Assembly: GCA_022508525.1 (NCBI GenBank)
Contig: JAFLVA010000003.1
Span: 39,769 to 103,768, forward strand
DNA: 64,000 nucleotides
Direction: 5' to 3'
From: Erysipelotrichales bacterium
GTDB lineage: Bacteria > Bacillota_I > Bacilli_A > RFN20 > CAG-826
Shown: positions 1 to 20,455 of the stretch, in pieces
How positions within the stretch are numbered: the first letter of the stretch is position 1
Layout of the letters: each line of letters begins with the position of its first letter
Notes under the pieces: generated by a model
Databases searched by the model: none
What the model was told of the DNA's origin: nothing
Seen by the model: only the letters and a program-made list of their open reading frames with translations
Made by a program: the position numbers and the translations under genes

Positions 1-466
1 TAATTATGGCGCCATCTTCCTTTTCACATATATATAATGCAATTTCTTTTTTTCCTACAATTAAGTAAAACAAATATTTTGAGCTTGTTTTGCATTTAAC
101 TGAATTATTCTTAAATGTGTTATAATCAGTACTCGAAGGAAAAACATAATCAGAAGGATGAAAATGCCAATCGCCTAGGTACATTGTAGTATTATCACAT
201 TTCCAAATAGAGTTGACAATTTCTATGTGATTTGGATCTAATCTACTATAACTAGTTGATGTAACACGATCAAAATATTGCTGATTTGTAATTCCTGAGA
301 TAATATATTCGTTTTTTTCTTTGATTTTAAATCCATACAAAATGCCTCCACTTTCTAAATGAGAATTTGTTACTTTAAAAAGACTTTTAATTACATCAGT
401 TTTTATAACTATTGATAGTCTTTTATATGTTATTACTACGTTTTCCACATATATCGCATCCTTCAT
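1..466 (-). CDS. cap3: CBASS Cap3-like JAB/JAMM metallopeptidase; C-terminus runs off the window, not in ORF track
   Basis: Hand translation of minus strand from ATG at 466-464: MKDAIYVENVV..HLESGGILYGF..LGDWHFHPSDYVFPSSTDYNTF.. carries the full JAMM motif E..HxHx7Sx2D. Start overlaps the cap2 stop by 44 nt. In-frame stop upstream at 491-493. Confidence 0.8.
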   Translation of the reverse strand, partial: MKDAIYVENVVITYKRLSIVIKTDVIKSLFKVTNSHLESGGILYGFKIKEKNEYIISGITNQQYFDRVTSTSYSRLDPNHIEIVNSIWKCDNTTMYLGDWHFHPSDYVFPSSTDYNTFKNNSVKCKTSSKYLFYLIVGKKEIALYICEKEDGAII

Positions 467-2093
467 AAACAAAATCTTTAGATATAGAATCTAATTCCTC
501 CTGAGTGTAGTTTGCATACTTTGTCAGCTTGTATCCATCCTGCAGATACTTTTTAAAGTTACCTTTTCTTATGAAATGCTTATTTCCCAAGGGGGAATAA
601 CTGCTATAATCATTTAATAATAAGTCTACAATTGAAGTGGCCAATCTAACTGTGGATACTTTCCCATAGGGAGTATAACTGCCTGCACATACATTATTTC
701 TAATTTTATAATCTACATCATCGGTAGTAAAATGAATATTGTTTGTTGATTTGCATAGGCAATTGTAACATCCAGGTTTTGATGTATCTATTGTTAGAAT
801 ATGTTCTGCGATTCCGTAAGGTTCAAGCCAACCAAAAATAAGCTTCGTATTAATATTATTGTCATAAATGTATTTATTTATATATTTGTGTAGAATATTA
901 TTTCCTACACAAACTATAATATATTTATATTTTTTTAGATTTAATTTAGTGCATTTTAAAAGTTCTACAATGTTTTCTTTATAAATTGTTATATTTACAT
1001 CAGGATATTTAAATTCTGTGAAACATTTTAAAACTTCAGCTTTATTGCTTTCTTCTAAATGATTTAAGTATATAAAACCTGTTAAATTTCTGTATGTGTT
1101 TTCATATTTCAAAAGATCGTAGTCGACTATGGATAAATTTAAAAATCCAGAGCTTGAAAGCAGTTCAACCACTTCGCTCCCAACAGATCCACATCCAATG
1201 ACTAATACATCTTCATCGGCCTGTATGCTTCCACCTCTAGTTCTCAAAAATTCAAAAGAAATATCACGAACATTATATATTTTTATGCATGTGTCAAAAG
1301 TAGAAATATTATTTTTATATACAATACTTTTATTTTGTTCTAACTCTGTAAGAAAGTAATTTTTAATTCCGTTATCAAGTTTATATTCACATAAAAAAAA
1401 TTGCGCTTTATTCATTTCTTTTTCCATTTTTTTCTGTGATGACTTGGTAAGACAATTATATAATTCATTGATCATCAAATTGCTGGTAGTAATCTTAGGT
1501 AAAGAGTGTAACTCTAAATGAATATAATTTCTGAATGGATAATTTTTATTTGAGTTTTTTTTATAACATTTGTATAGTGTAGAATCAATCCCGATTAATA
1601 TTCTATTTTCCTCAATAACTAATTGGCCTTTGTCGCCATTAATTGATGAACATAATAGACATTTTTTTTCGCAATAATTCAAATAAAAAGGTAGATAGTC
1701 ATTAAATTCGTATTTGATTTCTTTTGAGTTTTCTTCTTCTGAAACTAATAAAAGGTTTCTCAGAGAATTAATAGTTTTTATAATTACTTCTTCCTCATTC
1801 TCTATGTCATAGTCAATATCTTCTTGATTTTGAAGACAAACAACACCTTTTTTGTCAATGTGCGAATGAATTAAATCTGTAAGAACCGTTAGTTTTGGTA
1901 AGTGAATTGGAAAATATTTTGGAAGGAACAATTCAAATTTTTCCCCTAAGAAATCAAATGTACAAATAAATTGCGAGTCATGATTATTATATAATTTGCT
2001 TTTATCGGCTATTACAATATTCTCTATACCGATTATTTTTTCTAATATATTTTTATAATCAGGCATATTTTGCACTTTTTGAGAAAGACTCAT
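423..2093 (-). CDS. cap2: CBASS Cap2-like E2/E1 fusion (ubiquitin-transferase-like)
   Basis: 556 aa. N-terminal E2-like HIDKKGVVCL. ThiF/E1 Rossmann DVLVIGCGSVGSEVVELLSSSGF..IVDYD. Cys cluster PGCYNCLC. RBS GAGGA 5 nt upstream of ATG 2093. Sits between CD-NTase and JAB genes. Confidence 0.8.
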   Translation of the reverse strand: MSLSQKVQNMPDYKNILEKIIGIENIVIADKSKLYNNHDSQFICTFDFLGEKFELFLPKYFPIHLPKLTVLTDLIHSHIDKKGVVCLQNQEDIDYDIENEEEVIIKTINSLRNLLLVSEEENSKEIKYEFNDYLPFYLNYCEKKCLLCSSINGDKGQLVIEENRILIGIDSTLYKCYKKNSNKNYPFRNYIHLELHSLPKITTSNLMINELYNCLTKSSQKKMEKEMNKAQFFLCEYKLDNGIKNYFLTELEQNKSIVYKNNISTFDTCIKIYNVRDISFEFLRTRGGSIQADEDVLVIGCGSVGSEVVELLSSSGFLNLSIVDYDLLKYENTYRNLTGFIYLNHLEESNKAEVLKCFTEFKYPDVNITIYKENIVELLKCTKLNLKKYKYIIVCVGNNILHKYINKYIYDNNINTKLIFGWLEPYGIAEHILTIDTSKPGCYNCLCKSTNNIHFTTDDVDYKIRNNVCAGSYTPYGKVSTVRLATSIVDLLLNDYSSYSPLGNKHFIRKGNFKKYLQDGYKLTKYANYTQEELDSISKDFVYEGCDICGKRSNNI

Positions 2094-3003
2094 TGCTTTC
2101 CTCTTTTTCTGGCTCTGGGAAGTCTGGAAATATTTTTCTCAGTATACAGCAACATTCATATAAACTGGATTTTTTAATATTTTTAGCTTCAATTAATGTA
2201 TTATGTAATTTTTTCACTTCTTCTAAAAATATTGATACGCATTTTTCATCAGCGTCCATTTTATAATAGATATTATCCGAAGAAAACGGATGACATTTGG
2301 ATATGTGACCATTAATAACTAAGTTTTTTAGCCTGTTTGCAATTTCGATAAGTGTGTCTAAATCATTGTCAAAAAAGAAAGAATCAAACCATTCTTTTGC
2401 TTCTAACGTTAAGGCAATACTTGGGGTTTTTGAATTTTTTCTTTTATTTGCAAATGCGTTGTTATTCCATTTTTTAAGAAGTCTAATTATTCTCTTATAA
2501 TCAGTGTTTTTTGATTGCAAATACTCTATTAAATCATTTGGTTTAGATTCGACCCATTTGACATCATCTTGCTTTCCATCTGCCAAATAATATTTTTTTG
2601 TTTGATCATCATAGGCAAAAATTGGAAAATCAATATGATAATTAGGATTACCATCTTTTATATATATGGCTGTTAGACATTTTGTTTTAAATTTTTTCTC
2701 CTTATGATTAGATATAGCATCATAAACAGATTTTTTGCATTCATTTGCATCGTATTTTTCTAAATCTGATTCTAGAATATTAAGTCTTATACCACAATCA
2801 ATGTCATAGTCATTATCTTTATATTTTACGCCTGTCTTTAATTTATAACTTCCCAAATTAATATAACTAAATGTTAAGTTATCCAAATTATTTTTAATCT
2901 CATCTAAAGTGATATCCCTTTTTTCTCTCATTTTGTCATAATCACTATCATGTAGCATTATTGAATCATTATAGTCTTTAAATAAATCATTTAAATCTTT
3001 CAT
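2059..3003 (-). CDS. CD-NTase (cGAS/DncV-like nucleotidyltransferase)
   Basis: 314 aa. GS..DxD active-site pattern GSYKLKTGVKYKDNDYDIDCGI, third acidic site HIDFPIF, IIRLLKKWNN helix typical of CD-NTases. ATGA overlap with upstream SAVED gene. Ends in TGA. Confidence 0.8.
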   Translation of the reverse strand: MKDLNDLFKDYNDSIMLHDSDYDKMREKRDITLDEIKNNLDNLTFSYINLGSYKLKTGVKYKDNDYDIDCGIRLNILESDLEKYDANECKKSVYDAISNHKEKKFKTKCLTAIYIKDGNPNYHIDFPIFAYDDQTKKYYLADGKQDDVKWVESKPNDLIEYLQSKNTDYKRIIRLLKKWNNNAFANKRKNSKTPSIALTLEAKEWFDSFFFDNDLDTLIEIANRLKNLVINGHISKCHPFSSDNIYYKMDADEKCVSIFLEEVKKLHNTLIEAKNIKKSSLYECCCILRKIFPDFPEPEKEESNESFSKSAKYA

Positions 3004-3773
3004 TTTTGTATTCTTCCTTCCTTAATGTTAATTTTCCATGTGTAGTTTCCGTTTTCATATTCGTAACAGTACACATTTGGGTGATGCTTTTGTATTGAAC
3101 TACCAATCGTAAAAGCAATAGATTGCCTTGCTGCAACGTATAAATGTATGTTTTTTACATTTTTGTAATCTAAGTAATCAAATAGTTTTAAACATTCTTC
3201 ATAAACAAAATCCAAATATTCTTTGGAAATTACCTCGTTTTTCATCCTTACATTAAGAAATATTGAATTTCTTTTAGGTAATTTATCAGTGCTTATATCA
3301 TATGAACTATTTATAACGACATTGATGTCTTCTAATGAATTTTCGATTTCATAATTGATGTCATAATCGATGTGTTTTTTGCTGCTTTTTACTATATATT
3401 TTTTATTAGTATTTTTGTTGTTTTCCAAAAAAACAATGTTTGCTTTGTTGCTTGCCATATACCCATCATAAATCGCTAATGGCACGCTAACGCATCCAGT
3501 ATAATAAAGTGTTTTAGAATATTTTTTACTTTTATTAAATCTTTTCCAAATATACTTCATTTTTTTTAAATGGAGCTTATAATACTTATCGTTTAACGTA
3601 TATAGTTGTATTACATTGCTATTTTGCAGTCCAATTTCTTTTTCAAATGTGCGCATATCTTCACCTAAAAATTTTTTATTACAATTAACATAAATAATGT
3701 TTTTATCATATTGTTTTTTGATTTTTTTGTAAATTTCTATTAGTTGCCAAACAAATTTAAATAGTTCTATCAT
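3000..3773 (-). CDS. SAVED-domain protein (cyclic-oligonucleotide sensor) with no recognisable fused effector; ORF track extends to 3848
   Basis: Two CARF-like halves: YYTGCVSVPLAIYDGYM and IHLYVAARQSIAFTIGSSIQKHHPNVYCYEY. Preferred start is ATG 3773 with AAAGGGGGGG SD-like run upstream. The 25-codon extension to 3848 has no SD and coincides with promoter/CIRCE-like sequence. Confidence 0.6.
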   Translation of the reverse strand: MIELFKFVWQLIEIYKKIKKQYDKNIIYVNCNKKFLGEDMRTFEKEIGLQNSNVIQLYTLNDKYYKLHLKKMKYIWKRFNKSKKYSKTLYYTGCVSVPLAIYDGYMASNKANIVFLENNKNTNKKYIVKSSKKHIDYDINYEIENSLEDINVVINSSYDISTDKLPKRNSIFLNVRMKNEVISKEYLDFVYEECLKLFDYLDYKNVKNIHLYVAARQSIAFTIGSSIQKHHPNVYCYEYENGNYTWKINIKEGRIQK

Positions 3774-3800
3774 GCGATATGTCCCCCCCTTTGTTACTAT

Positions 3801-3830
3801 ATTATATAAACAAATTAGCACTGTTGTCAA
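3801..3830 (-). promoter_or_regulatory. Putative sigma-70-type promoter of the CBASS operon
   Basis: Minus-strand read TTGACA (3830-3825), then 16-18 nt, then TATATA/TATAAT (3808-3801), followed by a G-rich SD and ATG 3773. Confidence 0.5.
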
Positions 3831-3841
3831 CAAAGTGCTAA
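3815..3841. promoter_or_regulatory. CIRCE-like inverted repeat (HrcA-operator-like) overlapping the CBASS -35 box
   Basis: Plus strand reads TTAGCACTG-TTGTCAACA-AAGTGCTAA versus consensus TTAGCACTC-N9-GAGTGCTAA (16/18). Arms are self-complementary at 8/9. Layout matches the distal clpB CIRCE at 20429-20455. Confidence 0.6.
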
Positions 3842-3913
3842 AAAACATTTGCTGAAAGTTGTCAAATTGTTAATTTTGCGGCAAAAACGGAATAATTATC
3901 TCAGTTTTATACA

Positions 3914-3941
3914 TTGAAATAGTACAACTTTATGATAAAAT
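3914..3941 (+). promoter_or_regulatory. Putative promoter of the helicase-nuclease gene
   Basis: TTGAAA, 16 nt, TGaTAAAAT (extended -10); AGGAG RBS 7 nt before ATG 3970. Such matches are common in AT-rich DNA. Confidence 0.35.
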
Positions 3942-3969: not shown

Positions 3970-6900
3970 ATGAAGACTTTATTAAATAATTACTGCTTTT
4001 CTGAAAAAAAAGGTGGGTTATTATTGATAGATATGCCTACTGGTATAGGAAAAACACATGATGCTATTGAGTTCATATATGAAAACTATAAGAAAGCAAA
4101 AAATAAGATTATTTTCATTACTAATTTAAAGAAAAATTTACCTATAGCAGATTTACAAGAATATTTTAAAAAAGATAATAGGTTAGATGAGTTTGAAAAC
4201 GATGTCTTGTTTTTAGATAATAATGTTGATACTCTCATTGATCACTTCGATGAAGTTAAAACTTTAATACCAAGAGATAAATTTAATAAAAATGGTATTT
4301 TAAACAACGTGGAGACTTGCATTAATATTATACACACGCTCAAACCCGCTTTGAATAAAAGAAAAGATATGGCAAGAGATATTGTTTCAAAAGATAATAC
4401 TATTTTTATTATAAACCAAGCCAAAGAAAACCTTAGAGATAAATATGAAAAGGAGTTTAGATTAGTAATTGAAGAAGTATTAAAAATTGATGCTGATGGA
4501 AAGAAAAGAACAAAAGCGCAAAAATTACAACTCATCAAAGATGATTCTGATTATCAATGGATTTCAAAACTTTATCCAGCTGTATTCACTGATGAAAAGA
4601 AAATACTTTTTATGAGTATTGATAAATTTCTTGTTAGAAATTCAACAATTATTGAGCCTTCATATAATTTCCTTGATAATAAATCATTATTAAACGATTC
4701 CATTATTTTTATTGATGAGTTTGATTCAAGCAAAGAAATTTTTTTAAATAATATAATAGATGATTGTTTAAACACTGAAATAGGAATAATTGAATTATTC
4801 CGTATAATTTATTCTGGGTTGGAAACTACTAATTTTTCAAGATTATTAACAGAAGTATCTAAAAAACTATTTGACAATATAAATAATAAAAAATTACGTT
4901 ACTATACGCCAGAGAAGATACTGAATGAGTTTAGTGCGCGAGCAAAAGAAATTGAAGAAAAATATAATCTTGTTGATTTTCATAAACTTGAGGTTTCAGA
5001 AAAAGAAAAGGCAAACTTTTTGTTTCAGGATTATCAATTTCATACAGTTCTAAATGATGAGAAAAAATTTGTTTATTTTGAAAACGACCATAAACAGCAT
5101 ATAAACTGGATAAAAAGTTCCAACAGTAAAAAAACAACTGAGGAGGAAAGTCTTTTTTCATTGCTTAATGAAATTAAATCTTTTTTAGTGTATTTCCAAA
5201 ATGGAGTTAAGTTAATTGCGGATAACTATTTATCATTAAAGAATGATAGAAATCAAGAAACAAATAATTTTTCTTATGAAGCCGCTGTAAAAACAGTTTT
5301 ATCAGAGTTTGGTATTGATGGGAAATATTTAAATTACTTAACCAGTCAAATTCTTAACACAAAGAAAACAAAATCGGTTAAACTAGTTGATTTAAAAAGT
5401 GAACTAGATTGCTCAGTTTATGAAAAAGGATTTAGATTTTATAATTTAATAGATAATGATAGTTTTGATACTCAATCAAAAATTAATTTAATATCTTTTA
5501 ATATATCGCCAGAAAAACTATTAATTTATTTATGCTCAAACTCTAAAGTAGTGGGTATATCCGCAAGTGGCACTTTAAATACAGTTACTGGCAACTATGA
5601 TCTTCCTTATGTTAAAAGTAAATTAGGACATTTATACTACGAATTAAGTCGGGATGAACAAGATAGAATTAACAATTTTGTTATGAAAAATTTAGGTGAT
5701 TATAGTAATGTGAAAATTGATATTGATAAATGTATTATTAATGATAAAAATTATTATGATGTTATACAAAATTTTTTGACTGAAGATGAGTTTAAGTTAA
5801 TCAAAAAGAAAATTGATAAAATTACTACAGAAGACTATATGAAATCAAGATATTGCAAAGTTACGTATGCAATTCATAACTTTTTTGTAAGAAATATAAA
5901 TTCATTTTTATTTTTAACAAATGTGTCGATGAATAATAGTATGAATTTTAATTACGAAGTAGTTAAATTTATATTTAAAACATTAAAAACAAAGTATTGT
6001 AAAAATGCATATTTATATTCTTTAGATGGTCCGTTAGATAAATTTGAAAATTTAAAAGAAAATATTTTTAGTAAATTGAAAGAAGGAAATGATGTGTTTG
6101 TAGTTTCGTCCTATCAATCAATTGGAGCCGGTCAAAACTTACAATACGAATATAATGAAATGTATGAAGATTTATTGGAAACAATAAAAGATAGTTCATA
6201 TGGAAAAAAATATAAAGACTTTGATGCTTTATTTTTGGATAAGCCAACTAATTTGTTTGTAAATATGAATTCTAGCCCAACAGAAGAGCAATTACTAAAA
6301 TTTATATATCAAATTAAGTGTCTAGAGGAAGTTGGTTTTTTTACTCTTGAACAAGCGAATATTGAGATAAAAAAAGGAATTAAAAGATTATATCATACTT
6401 CTACTCAAAGAATTAGAACTCCAAGGTCAAAACATTTATATATGCATACTGCTAAAATTATTTTACAAGCAATTGGAAGAATATGTAGAACTAATAAAAA
6501 GAATAAAAACATTTATATTTCCTTTGATCAACAAATGGAAACCGAGCTAGCAATTTGTAAAGAAGATCTTCTCAACATACAAATTAATTATGAACTAAGA
6601 AAATTGCTAAGTGAGTGTAAAAATATAAAAATTATTGATGATCAAAGCATACATAATGTAAACAATTCGAAAATTAGAAAAATTAATGATAGATTAGAGA
6701 CTCTAAAACAGTTTAAATTTGAAAGTGATATTGAAAAATGGGAGGAATTGAGAGATGTTGTTTTAAAACATCCGTACGATAATGATGAAATACATTTTAA
6801 ATATGATATATATGTTGAGTTAAAGGAAGCTAGTAATCATTATTATTACAATTTAAATGAATACAATGAAATAAACGTTACATATAGTATGCCTAATGAT

Positions 6901-7431
6901 TTTTGCATATGTGAAAATTCCTCCAATTTAAAAACGCTTATGTCCATAAATGGTGTTAAAGATTATTTTGAACTAAAAGGTTATGCAACCTCATTTCAAA
7001 AATCAAGATATATTCTTTTTCCGAATGTTTTTAATAGAATATATCTTGGTGCATTAGGCGAGGTTGTTGGTGAGTTTTTAGTGAACAAAATATTGGAACC
7101 TTTCAATTTTAAACTTGAACGCATTAGGGAACTAGAAAGATATGAAAAATTCGATTTTGTTTTTGATAATGATAAATATATTGATTTTAAATATTGGAGC
7201 GGAATGAATGATAAAGAAAGAACCGCTGAAGTAAATAGAGCATTAAAAAAATTAGATAAATGCCAGGGTAAAATATGCTACATAATTAACATACTCAAAC
7301 CAGAAAATTATGATCCTAAACTTTACATAAGTGCAGATTCAAGATTAATTATAATTCCTTATTTATATAATCCCGAAACTTGCAAATTTAATAATAATGC
7401 TATAGAGTTGCTTTTAAAAAACAGCTTTTAA
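3970..7431 (+). CDS. SF2 helicase (DinG/XPD-like motif pattern) fused to a C-terminal PD-(D/E)xK-like nuclease domain
   Basis: 1153 aa. Motif I DMPTGIGKTH, motif II IIFIDEFDSS, motif III GISASGTL, motif V-like SSYQSIGAGQNL, motif VI LQAIGRICRT. C-terminus GALGEVVGEFL..EKFDFVF..YIDFKYW fits a D..(D/E)xK nuclease core. Confidence 0.65.
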   Translation: MKTLLNNYCFSEKKGGLLLIDMPTGIGKTHDAIEFIYENYKKAKNKIIFITNLKKNLPIADLQEYFKKDNRLDEFENDVLFLDNNVDTLIDHFDEVKTLIPRDKFNKNGILNNVETCINIIHTLKPALNKRKDMARDIVSKDNTIFIINQAKENLRDKYEKEFRLVIEEVLKIDADGKKRTKAQKLQLIKDDSDYQWISKLYPAVFTDEKKILFMSIDKFLVRNSTIIEPSYNFLDNKSLLNDSIIFIDEFDSSKEIFLNNIIDDCLNTEIGIIELFRIIYSGLETTNFSRLLTEVSKKLFDNINNKKLRYYTPEKILNEFSARAKEIEEKYNLVDFHKLEVSEKEKANFLFQDYQFHTVLNDEKKFVYFENDHKQHINWIKSSNSKKTTEEESLFSLLNEIKSFLVYFQNGVKLIADNYLSLKNDRNQETNNFSYEAAVKTVLSEFGIDGKYLNYLTSQILNTKKTKSVKLVDLKSELDCSVYEKGFRFYNLIDNDSFDTQSKINLISFNISPEKLLIYLCSNSKVVGISASGTLNTVTGNYDLPYVKSKLGHLYYELSRDEQDRINNFVMKNLGDYSNVKIDIDKCIINDKNYYDVIQNFLTEDEFKLIKKKIDKITTEDYMKSRYCKVTYAIHNFFVRNINSFLFLTNVSMNNSMNFNYEVVKFIFKTLKTKYCKNAYLYSLDGPLDKFENLKENIFSKLKEGNDVFVVSSYQSIGAGQNLQYEYNEMYEDLLETIKDSSYGKKYKDFDALFLDKPTNLFVNMNSSPTEEQLLKFIYQIKCLEEVGFFTLEQANIEIKKGIKRLYHTSTQRIRTPRSKHLYMHTAKIILQAIGRICRTNKKNKNIYISFDQQMETELAICKEDLLNIQINYELRKLLSECKNIKIIDDQSIHNVNNSKIRKINDRLETLKQFKFESDIEKWEELRDVVLKHPYDNDEIHFKYDIYVELKEASNHYYYNLNEYNEINVTYSMPNDFCICENSSNLKTLMSINGVKDYFELKGYATSFQKSRYILFPNVFNRIYLGALGEVVGEFLVNKILEPFNFKLERIRELERYEKFDFVFDNDKYIDFKYWSGMNDKERTAEVNRALKKLDKCQGKICYIINILKPENYDPKLYISADSRLIIIPYLYNPETCKFNNNAIELLLKNSF

Positions 7432-7988: not shown

Positions 7989-9330
7989 CTAATTTAATTT
8001 TAACATTTTTTTAATATAATTTGACAATGCTTTATCTTCACAATAAATAAAACATCCTTTTTGCCCTCTTGTTAATAATGTTTTATATGTGTTTTTAATT
8101 AGTTGTTTAGCTAATACTTCTCCACAAGATCTAATACCTGATGATTTATCATCTTTTGAAATTTGATTTTTATCAGTTATTATTTCGTTTTTAACCTCGT
8201 CATATCTCAAATCTTTTCCGATAAGGACACCAATATAATTAAATTCTAGTCCTTGAGCAGTATGAATACATCCAACTTCTTCAAAAGACGATGGATTAAT
8301 AACCCATATTTTATCATTTTCTAAATTCCATCTTGCTTTAAATCCATTTTCTAAATAAATATCGTATTCTCCACGATGGTTTTTAACATCCCAATCATAA
8401 CAATACCCTGCAACCATACGTGCTTTATTATCAATTTCATTTTTATTTCTTAATTCATCTCTTAAAGCATTTGGATCATCAAAGACTCTAATATCGAAAT
8501 TTAAGTCAGAAACATCAATATCAACAGGTTCTCCTATTTGAAGAATGTTATTTATTAATTGAATATATAGATCACTACCATTACATCTAAATTGTTAAGT
8601 TAAAATTGTTTCTTCGTTCATTGTGACTCTACTATTTAATTGCTTTGCCCAATGAGCTATTTCTTCAATTGATCCAATATCTTTTGTAGTTACTTTTTGA
8701 TTTTCATCAATTAAAAATATTGTTAACAAAGAGGCATTGATGCATTCCATAATTTGATTTTGACCTTGGAAGTCACCATACATTTGTTTGACTAATCTAT
8801 GTGATTCATCCACAATTAAGCAATCATAAAAATTACTTGGAGACTTACATAATCCAAATGGTGATCTAAACAATTGCTTTATATTAACTTTTTTTTAAAT
8901 CGGGTTTACTTAATAATCTTAAATATGCATCTCTAGAGGCGCTATTTTTAGTGACATAACTAGTATTTAATACATTAGCAATGTATCGTTTTAAAAGATT
9001 TACAGCCAAAACAGATTTTCATGTACCTGGTCCGCCTTGAATAATAATAGTTTTTTCATAGTCTTAACACACATGTCATAAACTACAGCTTGTTCATCTA
9101 AAAGCATGAATTATTTTCTGCCTTTAATTAATAAAATGGTACGAGACAATCTTGTAATGACTTAGAAGGCTTAGTTCTACCATTATCAATTTTATATAAT
9201 AAATCACCATCATTTGATTTTTGATACAAAATGGTACCATATCATATCACTCTTTATAAATAGCATCATTTAATTTTCAGCAAATAACTATAACGTCGTA
9301 TTTATATTTATTGTATTTGATTATACGCGC
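7989..9330 (-). pseudogene. DUF2075-type P-loop NTPase (Schlafen-helicase-like), decayed; N-terminal limit approximate
   Basis: Reconstructed ..TIIIQGGPGT*KSVLAV.. has TGA at 9019-9021 in Walker A. Frameshift at the T8 run 8889-8896. CLIVDESHRL. In-frame TAA at 8595-8597. Then QFRCNGSD..MVAGYCYDW..IHTAQGLEFNYIGV..YKTLLTRGQKG. Another frameshift at the T6 run 9051-9056 and more stops upstream. Confidence 0.75.
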
Positions 9331-12023: not shown

Positions 12024-12098
12024 TGGTAGTCCCAACGGGAATCGAACCCGTGATCCAGCCTTGAGAGGGCTGTGTCTTAACCGCTTGACGATGGGACC
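12024..12098 (-). tRNA. tRNA-Glu (anticodon CUC)
   Basis: GGTCCCATCGTCAAGCGGTTAAGACACAGCCCTCTCAAGGCTG..GGGTTCGATTCCCGTTGGGACTACCA. Cloverleaf foldable by eye. Anticodon loop CT-CTC-AA. CCA encoded. Confidence 0.85.
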
Positions 12099-14163: not shown

Positions 14164-14784
14164 ATGAGATATAGAATTAATTTAAAAACAGAAAGAGAAA
14201 AACGTAATATGACGCAAGCAAACCTTGCGAAACTTATTGGTGTGACTGAAAAATCTATATCTAAATGGGAAAGTGGTCGTGGACAACCTAGTTATGAAAA
14301 TATGTTAAAGATTTGTAAAGAGTTTAACATTGATATAAATAAGGTAGATAACAAGGCCATTATTAGGAATAGAATTAATATAATTTTGAATGGTTGCCTA
14401 GTACTCGTTAATTTAACAATAGTTATATTAATTTTTATACAAGTTGCTAAAATGAAAAATTCCGATCCTTTAACTGGCAACTTAAGTGTAGCTGGTCATT
14501 CACAGCTTATTGGCGAAGGAAATTTGATATCGGCAAATAGATTGAAAATTCTGTTAAAAATATTCATCATTGCTCCATTAATAAATTTATTTATACCTTC
14601 TATATTACGAAAACACGTTTTAATATCGGCTTGTGTTGCAATTGCTAATGTAGTATTTTGCATGTTTGTATTTAAAGATTTGAATTATTCTATATTCAAG
14701 TTTATTGGAATTATATCATTATTCATAATCGGCATAATTTTGTTTGCTAATTTCAAAACAAATAAAGAATTTAAGGTGACATAG
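14164..14784 (+). CDS. XRE-family HTH regulator with C-terminal transmembrane region
   Basis: HTH_3-like MTQANLAKLIGVTEKSISKWESGRGQPS followed by several hydrophobic helices. Confidence 0.7.
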   Translation: MRYRINLKTEREKRNMTQANLAKLIGVTEKSISKWESGRGQPSYENMLKICKEFNIDINKVDNKAIIRNRINIILNGCLVLVNLTIVILIFIQVAKMKNSDPLTGNLSVAGHSQLIGEGNLISANRLKILLKIFIIAPLINLFIPSILRKHVLISACVAIANVVFCMFVFKDLNYSIFKFIGIISLFIIGIILFANFKTNKEFKVT

Positions 14785-14785
14785 T

Positions 14786-15280
14786 ATGATAAGTTCAGAT
14801 GATTTTGGTAAATTTATTTCTGCTAAACGAAAAGAACTAAAAATATCTCAAGCATTATTAGCAGAAAAACTAAATATTGATTCTAAAACATTATCAAAAT
14901 GGGAAAATGGTGTAAATTATCCAGATCTAGAATCTGCACATAAAATTGCTGAAATTTTTAATATATCTTTAGATGATATATTAAATGAAAATTTTGACAC
15001 AGAAATAATTAGAAAGAAAAGGATTTTAACTTTTGATAATATTTTTGCTTTTGCGGTTATCATTTTAAGTACTATTTTTGTTGTTTTTAAGTATGTGAAA
15101 ATTTTTCGTGTTGTTGATGTAAATGTGTCACCAATAATATTAAGTTTCGATTTCTTATTAAACGTAGCATCCTTTATTATTTTAATTTTATATAAAAAGA
15201 GTATAACCAAGCAAAAAATGCTGATAATTTTTATTAAAATTATCTATTTTTTAACTATTGTATTGTTATTTATTTTGTAA
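14786..15280 (+). CDS. XRE-family HTH regulator with C-terminal transmembrane region (tandem paralogue)
   Basis: ISQALLAEKLNIDSKTLSKWENGVNYPD followed by TM helices. Starts 2 nt after the previous stop. Confidence 0.7.
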   Translation: MISSDDFGKFISAKRKELKISQALLAEKLNIDSKTLSKWENGVNYPDLESAHKIAEIFNISLDDILNENFDTEIIRKKRILTFDNIFAFAVIILSTIFVVFKYVKIFRVVDVNVSPIILSFDFLLNVASFIILILYKKSITKQKMLIIFIKIIYFLTIVLLFIL

Positions 15281-15354
15281 ATTTCCGTTTTTATAGATAT
15301 AGGTAGAGTTGACTTTGTGCTTATTATATAGCAGAAAGGAGCTTTTATACCGAC

Positions 15355-16614
15355 ATGAGCAACGGATTATTTTTAGTTGCAGGGTTATTAATAGGTGGAA
15401 TGACCTTGAGCAACAAACAAATTGGCGATAATGTTGATATTGCTAAATTTGAAAGTCTTAACTATATAGTTGAGCACATGAAAGAGTTTAATGAAGTTCG
15501 TATGGATGAAGGGTATGCGCCTACGAGCGTTGATTTCATTAAACCGGTTCCAATTAATACGGTCGATGGTGAAAAACTTGATGGCCGTTTATTAAAATTA
15601 AATGAGGGCTATATATTATTTGGTGAGGATGAAAAGATTCATGAAATCTCTCATATAAATAATATAGATATAGACAAATCTGCAAAATTAGAATTTTACG
15701 ATATTGGTGGATTTGTAGAATATGATAAGGCAACTGGAGAATTTGTTCCAATTAGTGAAAAAAATAAAGATGATGTAAATGCAACAACACCTACTATATA
15801 TGATGGACAATCTAGTAGTGGAGAAGGATGTATCTATGATCCAGAATTATATGTTTTATCAAGATATGGTGAGGGATATAATCTTTATCAATCTTATGAA
15901 ATTCGTAGTCCATTAGATAGATCTGTTAGAGCACTTAACGCATCTATTGTTGAATTAGGACAGTATAGGACTAATTTGGGAGCAAATGCTTTTGTGGATG
16001 AAGATATTTATGGCCTTATTGATGCTACAATTCTAGCGGATTTTATAAGTTTAAATTATGAATTTAGATTTGGCAGAAATTTATCATTTATTTATAATTG
16101 TGAAGAAAATGAACCAGAATTATATGAATACAAAACCACACATGGATGGTGGTGGACAAAAAATTATGTTTCAAAACTTTACATGCTTTTAAGAAAGCAT
16201 ATGTACGATGAATATGGAAGACTTGAACTTCTTACAAGAGACCAAGTAAAAGAAACTATTTTGTGGTTTGCTAATGAATATAACTACCCATTATCGTTGT
16301 CTGAAGATACGAGTATTTGGAGAAGCATGTATCTTAGAACGGATTTTTTCAATAAAACATTAAATCAGGATAGAATTATGATTGTGGATATTTCGAATAG
16401 TAAAACATATTCAGAATTAGTTGGAGTTGGAGTGGGATATAGAATTTATCAAAAAATTTCATATATCGTAGGTGTAGAGGTTGTTCAACAAGCATATTTA
16501 TTAGATTTTAAAGATTCATTCAATTATGGCCCTAATTATCTAGATATATCTTCTGCTGGAGTAGCGTGCAAAACAATTACTATGATTACGTCACCAGAAA
16601 GCTTTAATGCTTAG
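15355..16614 (+). CDS. Hypothetical exported/membrane-anchored protein
   Basis: N-terminal hydrophobic segment LFLVAGLLIGGMTL. AAAGGAG RBS. No domain recognised. Confidence 0.55.
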   Translation: MSNGLFLVAGLLIGGMTLSNKQIGDNVDIAKFESLNYIVEHMKEFNEVRMDEGYAPTSVDFIKPVPINTVDGEKLDGRLLKLNEGYILFGEDEKIHEISHINNIDIDKSAKLEFYDIGGFVEYDKATGEFVPISEKNKDDVNATTPTIYDGQSSSGEGCIYDPELYVLSRYGEGYNLYQSYEIRSPLDRSVRALNASIVELGQYRTNLGANAFVDEDIYGLIDATILADFISLNYEFRFGRNLSFIYNCEENEPELYEYKTTHGWWWTKNYVSKLYMLLRKHMYDEYGRLELLTRDQVKETILWFANEYNYPLSLSEDTSIWRSMYLRTDFFNKTLNQDRIMIVDISNSKTYSELVGVGVGYRIYQKISYIVGVEVVQQAYLLDFKDSFNYGPNYLDISSAGVACKTITMITSPESFNA

Positions 16615-20382: not shown

Positions 20383-20409
20383 TTAGCACTCTACAGCTTC
20401 AAGTGCTAA
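20383..20409. promoter_or_regulatory. CIRCE element (proximal, between -10 and SD of clpB)
   Basis: TTAGCACTC-TACAGCTTC-AAGTGCTAA, 17/18 to consensus. Confidence 0.8.
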
Positions 20410-20428
20410 TTATATTATATGGTAAATT

Positions 20429-20455
20429 TTAGCAATGTCAATACAAGAGTGCTAA
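20429..20455. promoter_or_regulatory. CIRCE element (distal, overlapping clpB -35)
   Basis: TTAGCAATG-TCAATACAA-GAGTGCTAA, 16/18. On the gene strand TTGACA-16-TATAAT is embedded in or follows it. Confidence 0.7.

Follow-up and report, generated by a model that had tools for sequence, protein, structure and literature searches.

We found that a CIRCE-like inverted repeat, a putative operator of the heat-shock repressor HrcA, is embedded in the promoter that drives the four genes of a type II CBASS operon, within a 64-kb stretch of DNA from an Erysipelotrichales bacterium (this whole analysed stretch is hereafter the window). The repeat is non-coding, surrounds the -35 hexamer of the operon and is kept, in weaker form, at the promoters of orthologous CBASS operons, and would represent a CIRCE-type operator built into a sigma-A promoter. 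Repression of CBASS by HrcA, relieved upon titration of GroEL, is the best explanation of the site and, in our assessment, a probable one; the CIRCE/HrcA-operator reading itself is supported, every available sequence-level test having turned out favourable.

The operon encodes a SAVED-domain effector, a CD-NTase, Cap2 and Cap3, in that order, by genes that overlap or abut on one strand (Table 1). Judged from protein-family matches it is a type II CBASS, as it possesses the CD-NTase, Cap2, Cap3 and a nucleotide-sensing effector, the last also matching the PADLOC 1TM/2TM/SAVED_TM effector models. Cap3 is cut by the window start; on the extended contig L014 it is complete (165 aa, PADLOC JAB 6.1e-30) and followed by an oppositely oriented dehydrogenase gene, so the cassette was delimited to four genes. 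The island that houses the cassette in the window is variable and adjoins tRNA-Glu (12024-12098) and gltX, and a relative with an 84% identical ClpB has other genes at that island position. Orthologous cassettes, all of the loci compared being from uncultured MAGs or metagenome contigs, lie next to sequences resembling tRNA 3' ends or to a gene for a tyrosine integrase (L006 1-60, L007 30-60, L001 1735-3297), from which we conclude that the cassette moves on integrative islands. Farther along this contig, some 2.3-3.5 kb past the first position of the window (L014 16168-17290), lies a gene for a capP-like M78 peptidase (PADLOC capP 1.7e-15), followed by one for an acidic protein of 174 aa in which a membrane segment is predicted; the capP-like gene is located 2.3 kb past Cap3, behind the dehydrogenase gene, and no HTH (CapH-like) partner was found near it.

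Table 1. Features of the CBASS locus, of the clpB reference locus and of orthologous repeats. Coordinates are window positions; L numbers denote related loci.
Feature	Coordinates	Strand	Evidence and remarks
Cap3 (JAB deubiquitinase-like)	1-448	-	HxH motif; 3' end beyond window start
Cap2 (E1-E2 fusion)	423-2093	-	PADLOC E1-E2 1.3e-68; Pfam ThiF
CD-NTase (cyclic-oligonucleotide synthase)	2059-3003	-	PADLOC Cyclase 2.6e-61; Pfam DncV-like NTFase
SAVED-domain effector, 257 aa, first gene	3000-3773	-	Pfam SAVED 6.1e-19; short hydrophobic N-terminus
Ribosome-binding site AAAGGGGGGG	3783-3792	-	9 nt before ATG 3773; G-rich RBS kept in orthologues
-10 hexamer TATAAT	3801-3806	-	18 nt past -35; invariant in alignment of orthologous promoters
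-35 hexamer TTGACA	3825-3830	-	spacer positions 3-8 of repeat; kept in orthologues
CIRCE-like inverted repeat, putative HrcA operator	3815-3841	none	16/18 to CIRCE consensus
Promoter-like site of DdmD-like gene, TTGAAA-16-TAAAAT with TG	3914-3941	+	promoter scan
DdmD-like helicase, 1153 aa, divergent from CBASS	3970-7431	+	PADLOC DdmD 1.9e-37
ClpB, 851 aa	17814-20369	-	passes equivalog model TIGR03346
Proximal clpB CIRCE	20383-20409	none	1 mismatch; 5' leader, between -10 and RBS
Distal clpB CIRCE	20429-20455	none	overlaps clpB -35
L001/L002 repeat			left TTGGCACTG, spacer TATTGACAA, right CAGTGCCAT; 9-N9-9 around -35
L006 and L015 (uncultured Anaeroplasmataceae MAG) repeat			left TTGGCACTA, spacer TATTGACAA, right AAGTGCCAA
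L007 repeat			left TTGGCACAA, spacer TCTTGATAT, right TAGTGCCAA

The gene divergent from the operon encodes a DdmD-like helicase, with no apparent DdmE-like partner downstream of it, and its own promoter begins 73 nt from the repeat and is not part of the operator. Several other neighbours were recorded in the window. Two adjacent minus-strand ORFs (7989-8417 and 8595-8873) both carry the signature of the SLFN-g3 helicase (PF09848), and look like fragments of one DUF2075-type defence helicase gene, i.e. a pseudogene. At 14164-16614 on the plus strand, neighbouring genes for two HTH proteins of the XRE type, 206 and 164 aa long, precede that of a 419-aa protein without family match, and this trio is kept beside clpB in the relatives L163 and L164. 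From 26085 to 60848 extends a long, nearly all co-directional cluster encoding repeat-domain surface proteins, an ABC transporter for sugars, a regulator of the ROK type and enzymes of sugar catabolism, which from the translations appears to be a glycan-utilisation locus.

On the plus strand, the repeat at 3815-3841 reads TTAGCACTG TTGTCAACA AAGTGCTAA (arm, 9-nt spacer, arm). Read on the CBASS strand it is TTAGCACTT-TGTTGACAA-CAGTGCTAA, continuing as TTTGTTTA-TATAAT-ATAGTAAC-AAAGGGGGGG-ACATATCGC-ATG. The initial annotation had counted 16 matching positions out of 18 to the CIRCE consensus, and the recount against TTAGCACTC-N9-GAGTGCTAA agreed: the two mismatches are confined to the innermost positions 9 and 19, and the core TTAGCAC/GTGCTAA matches at 14/14, so the site has the consensus-matching 9-N9-9 repeat by which a CIRCE is recognised. 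Three CIRCE sites with at most 3 mismatches occur in the window versus 0.02 expected from dinucleotide shuffles, none of 100 shuffles reaching three, and the search at up to 4 mismatches found no 27-mer in the window beyond the CBASS site and two sites at clpB. Scoring with a half-site CIRCE PWM, of which two versions were used, gave 25.5-26.2 bits for the CBASS site, between the two clpB sites of the host (24.1-30.3 bits) and within the range of 54 bona fide CIRCE sites (24.0-35.5 bits), a comparison that the initial annotation had asked for; the best non-CIRCE 27-mer in the window scored 2.2-7.7 bits. Counting against the HrcA reading, a deviation at both innermost positions is seen just once among the 50 unique bona fide sites.

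The two clpB sites served as host references. The distal one overlaps a 12/12 promoter, TTGACA-16-TATAAT, and so has the CBASS-like layout that had been ascribed to it; the earlier account was right on this site and missed the second, proximal CIRCE. Both sites are kept in L163 and L164, whose ClpB proteins are 92% and 84% identical to that of the window, and the arm deviations of the operators TTAGCACTT...GAGTGCTAA and TTAGCACTC...CATTGCTAA are kept there too, with differing spacers. The left arm of the CBASS repeat, TTAGCACTT, is identical to that of the proximal clpB site, and the off-consensus bases of the CBASS repeat recur at clpB, T9 in the proximal left arm and C19 in the distal right arm. 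Judging from the clpB operators of the window, L163 and L164, the inner CIRCE positions are relaxed in this lineage. Likewise counting against the HrcA reading, no hrcA gene was found in the 64-kb window, and it is from the conserved clpB operators that we infer HrcA in the host.

As to the promoter, the consensus scan of the minus strand identified TTGACA-18-TATAAT with 12/12 matches. This is the one strong promoter that the CBASS operon has, and its -35 is covered by the repeat, which lies 42 nt before the start codon, i.e. on the promoter/5' leader as known for CIRCE. The elements named in the initial annotation, a TTGACA inside the 9-nt spacer, a -10 hexamer 16-18 nt later, a G-rich SD and the start at ATG 3773, were all recovered, with the -35 at 3830-3825 (spacer positions 3-8), TATAAT at 18 nt and AAAGGGGGGG as the SD. 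The mechanically called ORF of the effector is open up to ATG 3848, and the repeat would be coding from there, a start that had been named beforehand as speaking against an operator. Translation from ATG 3848 was rejected on three grounds: the homologues (254-261 aa plus one 220-aa fragment, the deposited effector having 257 aa) cover the query from ATG 3773 onward only, with 7/7 aligned ones beginning at the residue that matches ATG 3773; in four orthologous loci, stops that fall inside the repeat and the -10 interrupt the frame upstream of this codon; and no ribosome-binding site precedes ATG 3848. The repeat is thus non-coding and promoter-embedded.

The same arrangement was then sought on metagenome contigs with a pattern of CIRCE-like arms plus TTGAYA at the CBASS register, positions 3/25 being set to R/Y and 9/19 left free. 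At least 120 CIRCE-like sites with the -35-in-spacer layout were retrieved, against only a few expected by chance according to a rough estimate, and C9 and G19 appeared in almost all of the matches listed although the pattern left them free. Motif classification of the genes downstream of the 107 listed sites with a callable ORF yielded 27 hrcA, 22 rpoH-like sigma, 21 hsp20-like, 8 groES, 2 dnaK and 27 unclassified genes, so about three quarters were recognisable heat-shock or sigma genes; Pfam confirmed eight representatives (Cpn10, HrcA, HSP20, HSP70, Clp_N, Sigma70_r2). A -10-like hexamer follows the TTGAYA by 16-18 nt in 55 of 94 unique listed contexts versus 14 of 94 in a displaced control. 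These downstream genes and this spacing indicate that a -35 within the spacer is a standard design of HrcA-controlled promoters; the CBASS register equals that of many hrcA, groES, dnaK, hsp20 and clpB promoters, and by such comparison the CBASS site is equivalent to bona fide CIRCE promoters in both sequence and layout. No defence operon occurred among the 120 matches listed, so a linkage of CIRCE with defence is rare, which counts against the HrcA reading.

Natural variation among CIRCE sites was also collected. In the half-sites of the 50 unique bona fide sites, position 3 is A in 79% and G in 21%, and position 9 is C in 95%, making G3/C25 the commonest natural deviations (21% of half-sites); G3 or C25 is present in 19 of the 120 metagenome matches listed. 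Sites with the double G/C exchange lie upstream of dnaK (L158) and groES (L107), and a full TTGGCACTC-N9-GAGTGCCAA site is found about 110 nt upstream of groES on a contig with 66% G+C. A scan of viral contigs for TTGGCACT-N11-AGTGCCAA returned 27 matches, a number resembling chance by rough estimate, plus three full G-variant sites of high G+C, the groES-linked one among them; the promoter-operator pattern was not found in viral contigs. Two low-G+C phage contigs (L036 9800-9826, L040 3437-3463) carry an extended perfect palindrome, TTGGCACTAAAT...ATTTAGTGCCAA, which was matched by the G-variant pattern only.

The effector has few relatives, and their contigs have the four-gene order of the window. 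The effectors of L001/L002, L006, L007 and L015 are 57-59% identical to that of the window and 75-82% among themselves, and a five-way promoter alignment shows conservation of both arms, of the -35 and -10 hexamers and of the RBS, with the sequence further upstream diverged. A third clade, L169-171, has a 56% identical CD-NTase as the first gene of the operon, the SAVED effector as the last and an extra gene for a 148-aa SMODS fragment; its promoter, TAGACT-17-TATAAT with an extended -10, likewise carries a repeat on the -35, TTAGCAAAT-GTATAGACT-GAGTGCCAA, i.e. TTAGCAAAT-N9-GAGTGCCAA (L169 4926-4952, also in L170 and L171). The L166-168 clade showed no comparable repeat, and L165 was left out of the promoter comparison since its contig ends at the effector start and so lacks the promoter. 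Searching metagenome and viral contigs by protein sequence yielded no further orthologues.

The orthologous operons of Anaeroplasmataceae and of gut metagenomes carry repeats with weaker arms, which read TTGGCAC/GTGCCAA or TTAGCA/GTGCCAA. Repeats of L001, L006, L007, L015 and L169 deviate from CIRCE at 4-5 positions, including G3/C25 changes; their PWM scores of 10-20 bits are lower than that of any bona fide site but far above background, and the shortfall counts against the HrcA reading. In 4 of these 5 loci the repeat is the best CIRCE-PWM match under both PWMs, and in L007 it ranks first under one of them and second under the other. What related CBASS loci retain of the repeat, a check raised earlier, is its geometry and its position at the homologous promoter; the close match of the arms does not extend to these loci, given their 4-5 mismatches and 10-20 bits.

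In a sister clade (L003-5 and L008, effectors 44-45% identical), two genes stand immediately upstream instead of the repeat. One encodes a 156-aa protein with an HEMRH (HExxH) metallopeptidase motif and no family match, and the other, overlapping it, a 65-aa HTH protein matching the capH model (L003 5230-5887), so that the duo looks like a compact CapP/CapH-like pair. Its occurrence where the repeat would be suggests that the promoter-proximal position holds a regulatory module, and the operator appears to be modular with the CapP/CapH-type regulator of the sister clade. Beside the operon of the window there is no regulator gene of the CapH/CapP, CapW or CapK/CapS kind, the sole neighbour being the DdmD-like helicase, and an all-against-all ORF comparison revealed no non-CBASS ORF common to the repeat-bearing loci. 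As only the four CBASS genes are common to these loci, the factor reading the repeat must be host-encoded.

That factor could be a different host repressor, recognising TTRGCAC-N13-GTGCYAA with a preference for TTGGCAC and repressing CBASS outside the heat-shock circuit; the CIRCE likeness would then be partial or due to a related winged-helix protein. This main rival, which we consider unlikely, draws on three orthologous lineages whose two arms have stayed TTGGCAC/GTGCCA(A/T) and so depart from CIRCE symmetrically, on the strongly conserved C9/G19 pair being present in no CBASS site (G19 only in the L169 right arm), and on the scores of the orthologous repeats, all below the bona fide range. 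However, the CBASS sites scatter about CIRCE rather than about a G-variant consensus (A/T in the window, A/C in L169 and G/C in the others), the window site retains the complete 14/14 core at the exact 9-N9-9 spacing, and G3/C25 is found in real CIRCEs at groES and dnaK. Moreover, the cassette has no linked candidate regulator, and a perfect-core CIRCE would be bound anyway if HrcA is present. The lesser rivals are a promoter leftover and a hairpin. Were the promoter captured from a heat-shock gene, the CIRCE would be an evolutionary leftover, intact here and decaying elsewhere, and any HrcA control would be incidental and not an adaptation serving immunity. A layout typical of hrcA, hsp20 and groES promoters and the degenerate orthologous sites (4-5 mismatches) fit such a history; yet the arms, with every G and C, are kept across cassettes whose effectors are only 57-59% identical and whose upstream sequences diverged, this in hosts whose genomes have a G+C content of 25-30%, so that neutral sites tend to drift to A/T, and the third clade retains a related repeat at the same place. 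We rate the capture scenario as improbable.

It is very improbable that the palindrome acts as a nucleic-acid hairpin, be it a cruciform or a terminator that insulates the mobile cassette at its 5' edge. The loop of 7-11 nt holds the -35, scans of the window, L015 and L169 called no terminator-like site, the window has no co-directional gene upstream, the inner positions vary without complementarity (T/C in the window, A/A in L006), and it is the arm sequence itself that is conserved and equals a known protein-binding consensus. These points outweigh, in our view, the predicted folding energies (-10 kcal/mol with z -2.35 for the window repeat, -14 to -17 kcal/mol with z -4.5 to -5.3 for the orthologous ones), the T-rich sequence after the predicted hairpins, and the compensatory nature of the A/T versus G/C difference between lineages. 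An intrinsic terminator was rejected on the lack of a called site, the loop of 7-11 nt and the weak stem in the window (-10 kcal/mol), and a known RNA element on the lack of any Rfam match to the repeat. It is scarcely credible that the repeat controls the divergent DdmD-like gene (3970-7431) or lies inside an effector ORF starting at 3848, ideas prompted by the intergenic region common to both genes and by the frame open to that ATG. The repeat is about 110-130 nt upstream of the likely transcription start of the DdmD-like gene (taken a few bases past its -10), and orthologous loci pair it with CBASS and have no DdmD-like neighbour; an operator of this gene was rejected on such distance and context. 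The longer ORF conflicts with the homologue starts at the equivalent of ATG 3773, the stops in the orthologue frames and the missing RBS at 3848.

Returning to HrcA as the repressor, Bacillus subtilis has both HrcA and CIRCE, and HrcA requires GroEL for activity, as established in this species, from which the GroEL-titration model also stems. On the CBASS promoter, an HrcA dimer bound to both arms would cover the -35 located in the spacer and so exclude RNA polymerase from a promoter that is of consensus type and probably very strong. Given the dependence of HrcA on GroEL, unfolded-protein load, from heat and possibly from mass production of phage proteins, would titrate GroEL, leave HrcA inactive and raise CBASS expression. 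Lacking a regulator of its own, the cassette appears to bring a portable operator, the regulator for which would be present in almost every host. The presence and binding of HrcA, the repression, the stress induction and the link to infection are what we infer, and that last link is speculation. It is compatible with the report that phage infection can induce host heat-shock genes, e.g. phiX174 in E. coli (PMC8125068). A broader proposal, tentative and in our judgement possible rather than probable, is that a mobile type II CBASS family without a regulator uses a portable heat-shock operator, through which a burst of phage proteins would titrate GroEL, inactivate HrcA and trigger immunity, and which may be exchanged for a CapP/CapH-like pair.

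Compared with the class I heat-shock CIRCE/HrcA systems (groESL, hrcA-grpE-dnaK and clpB of B. subtilis, other Firmicutes and Mollicutes), the CBASS site has the same 9-N9-9 repeat and promoter overlap, and shares the -35 register with many hrcA, groES, dnaK and hsp20 promoters and the half-site variants with the clpB operators of the host. It differs in being off consensus at both innermost positions, in travelling with a mobile cassette and in having an abortive-infection immune operon downstream instead of chaperones or proteases. The described CBASS regulators, CapW (WYL), CapH with CapP and CapK with CapS, come from genes adjacent to the operon, and the signals that they answer to are DNA damage or single-stranded DNA (PMC11662680; PMC13373217). 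A repressor site on the CBASS promoter and the logic of stress-triggered derepression, here proposed, are common to them and to our case; here, by contrast, no regulator is linked, and the putative operator belongs to a global host repressor, with an unfolded-protein signal conveyed via GroEL. An HrcA regulon that reaches a non-chaperone gene has been reported in Chlamydiota, where the type III effector gene Wcw_0502/CTL0271 showed heat induction and HrcA occupancy (PMC12038028). It likewise has a CIRCE on the promoter of a gene unrelated to folding; that case concerns a virulence effector of obligate intracellular bacteria, and ours a phage-defence operon of gut Erysipelotrichales and Anaeroplasmataceae, recognised from DNA sequence alone.

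Literature searches for HrcA together with CBASS, anti-phage or defence systems found no link, in line with the initial remark that HrcA-type control is undescribed for CBASS; what is new is the connection, previously undescribed, of a known operator type, CIRCE, to a known defence system, CBASS. The finding bears on how toxic abortive-infection systems stay silent and then switch on. If CBASS is wired to the heat-shock repressor, proteotoxic stress would be a second kind of input to it, and a second design principle would be a mobile cassette that borrows a global regulator of its host through a portable operator. Under the broader and more tentative proposal, chaperone titration would act as an infection sensor for the transcription of immunity genes, an alternative to DNA-damage sensing by CapW, CapH/CapP and CapK/CapS.
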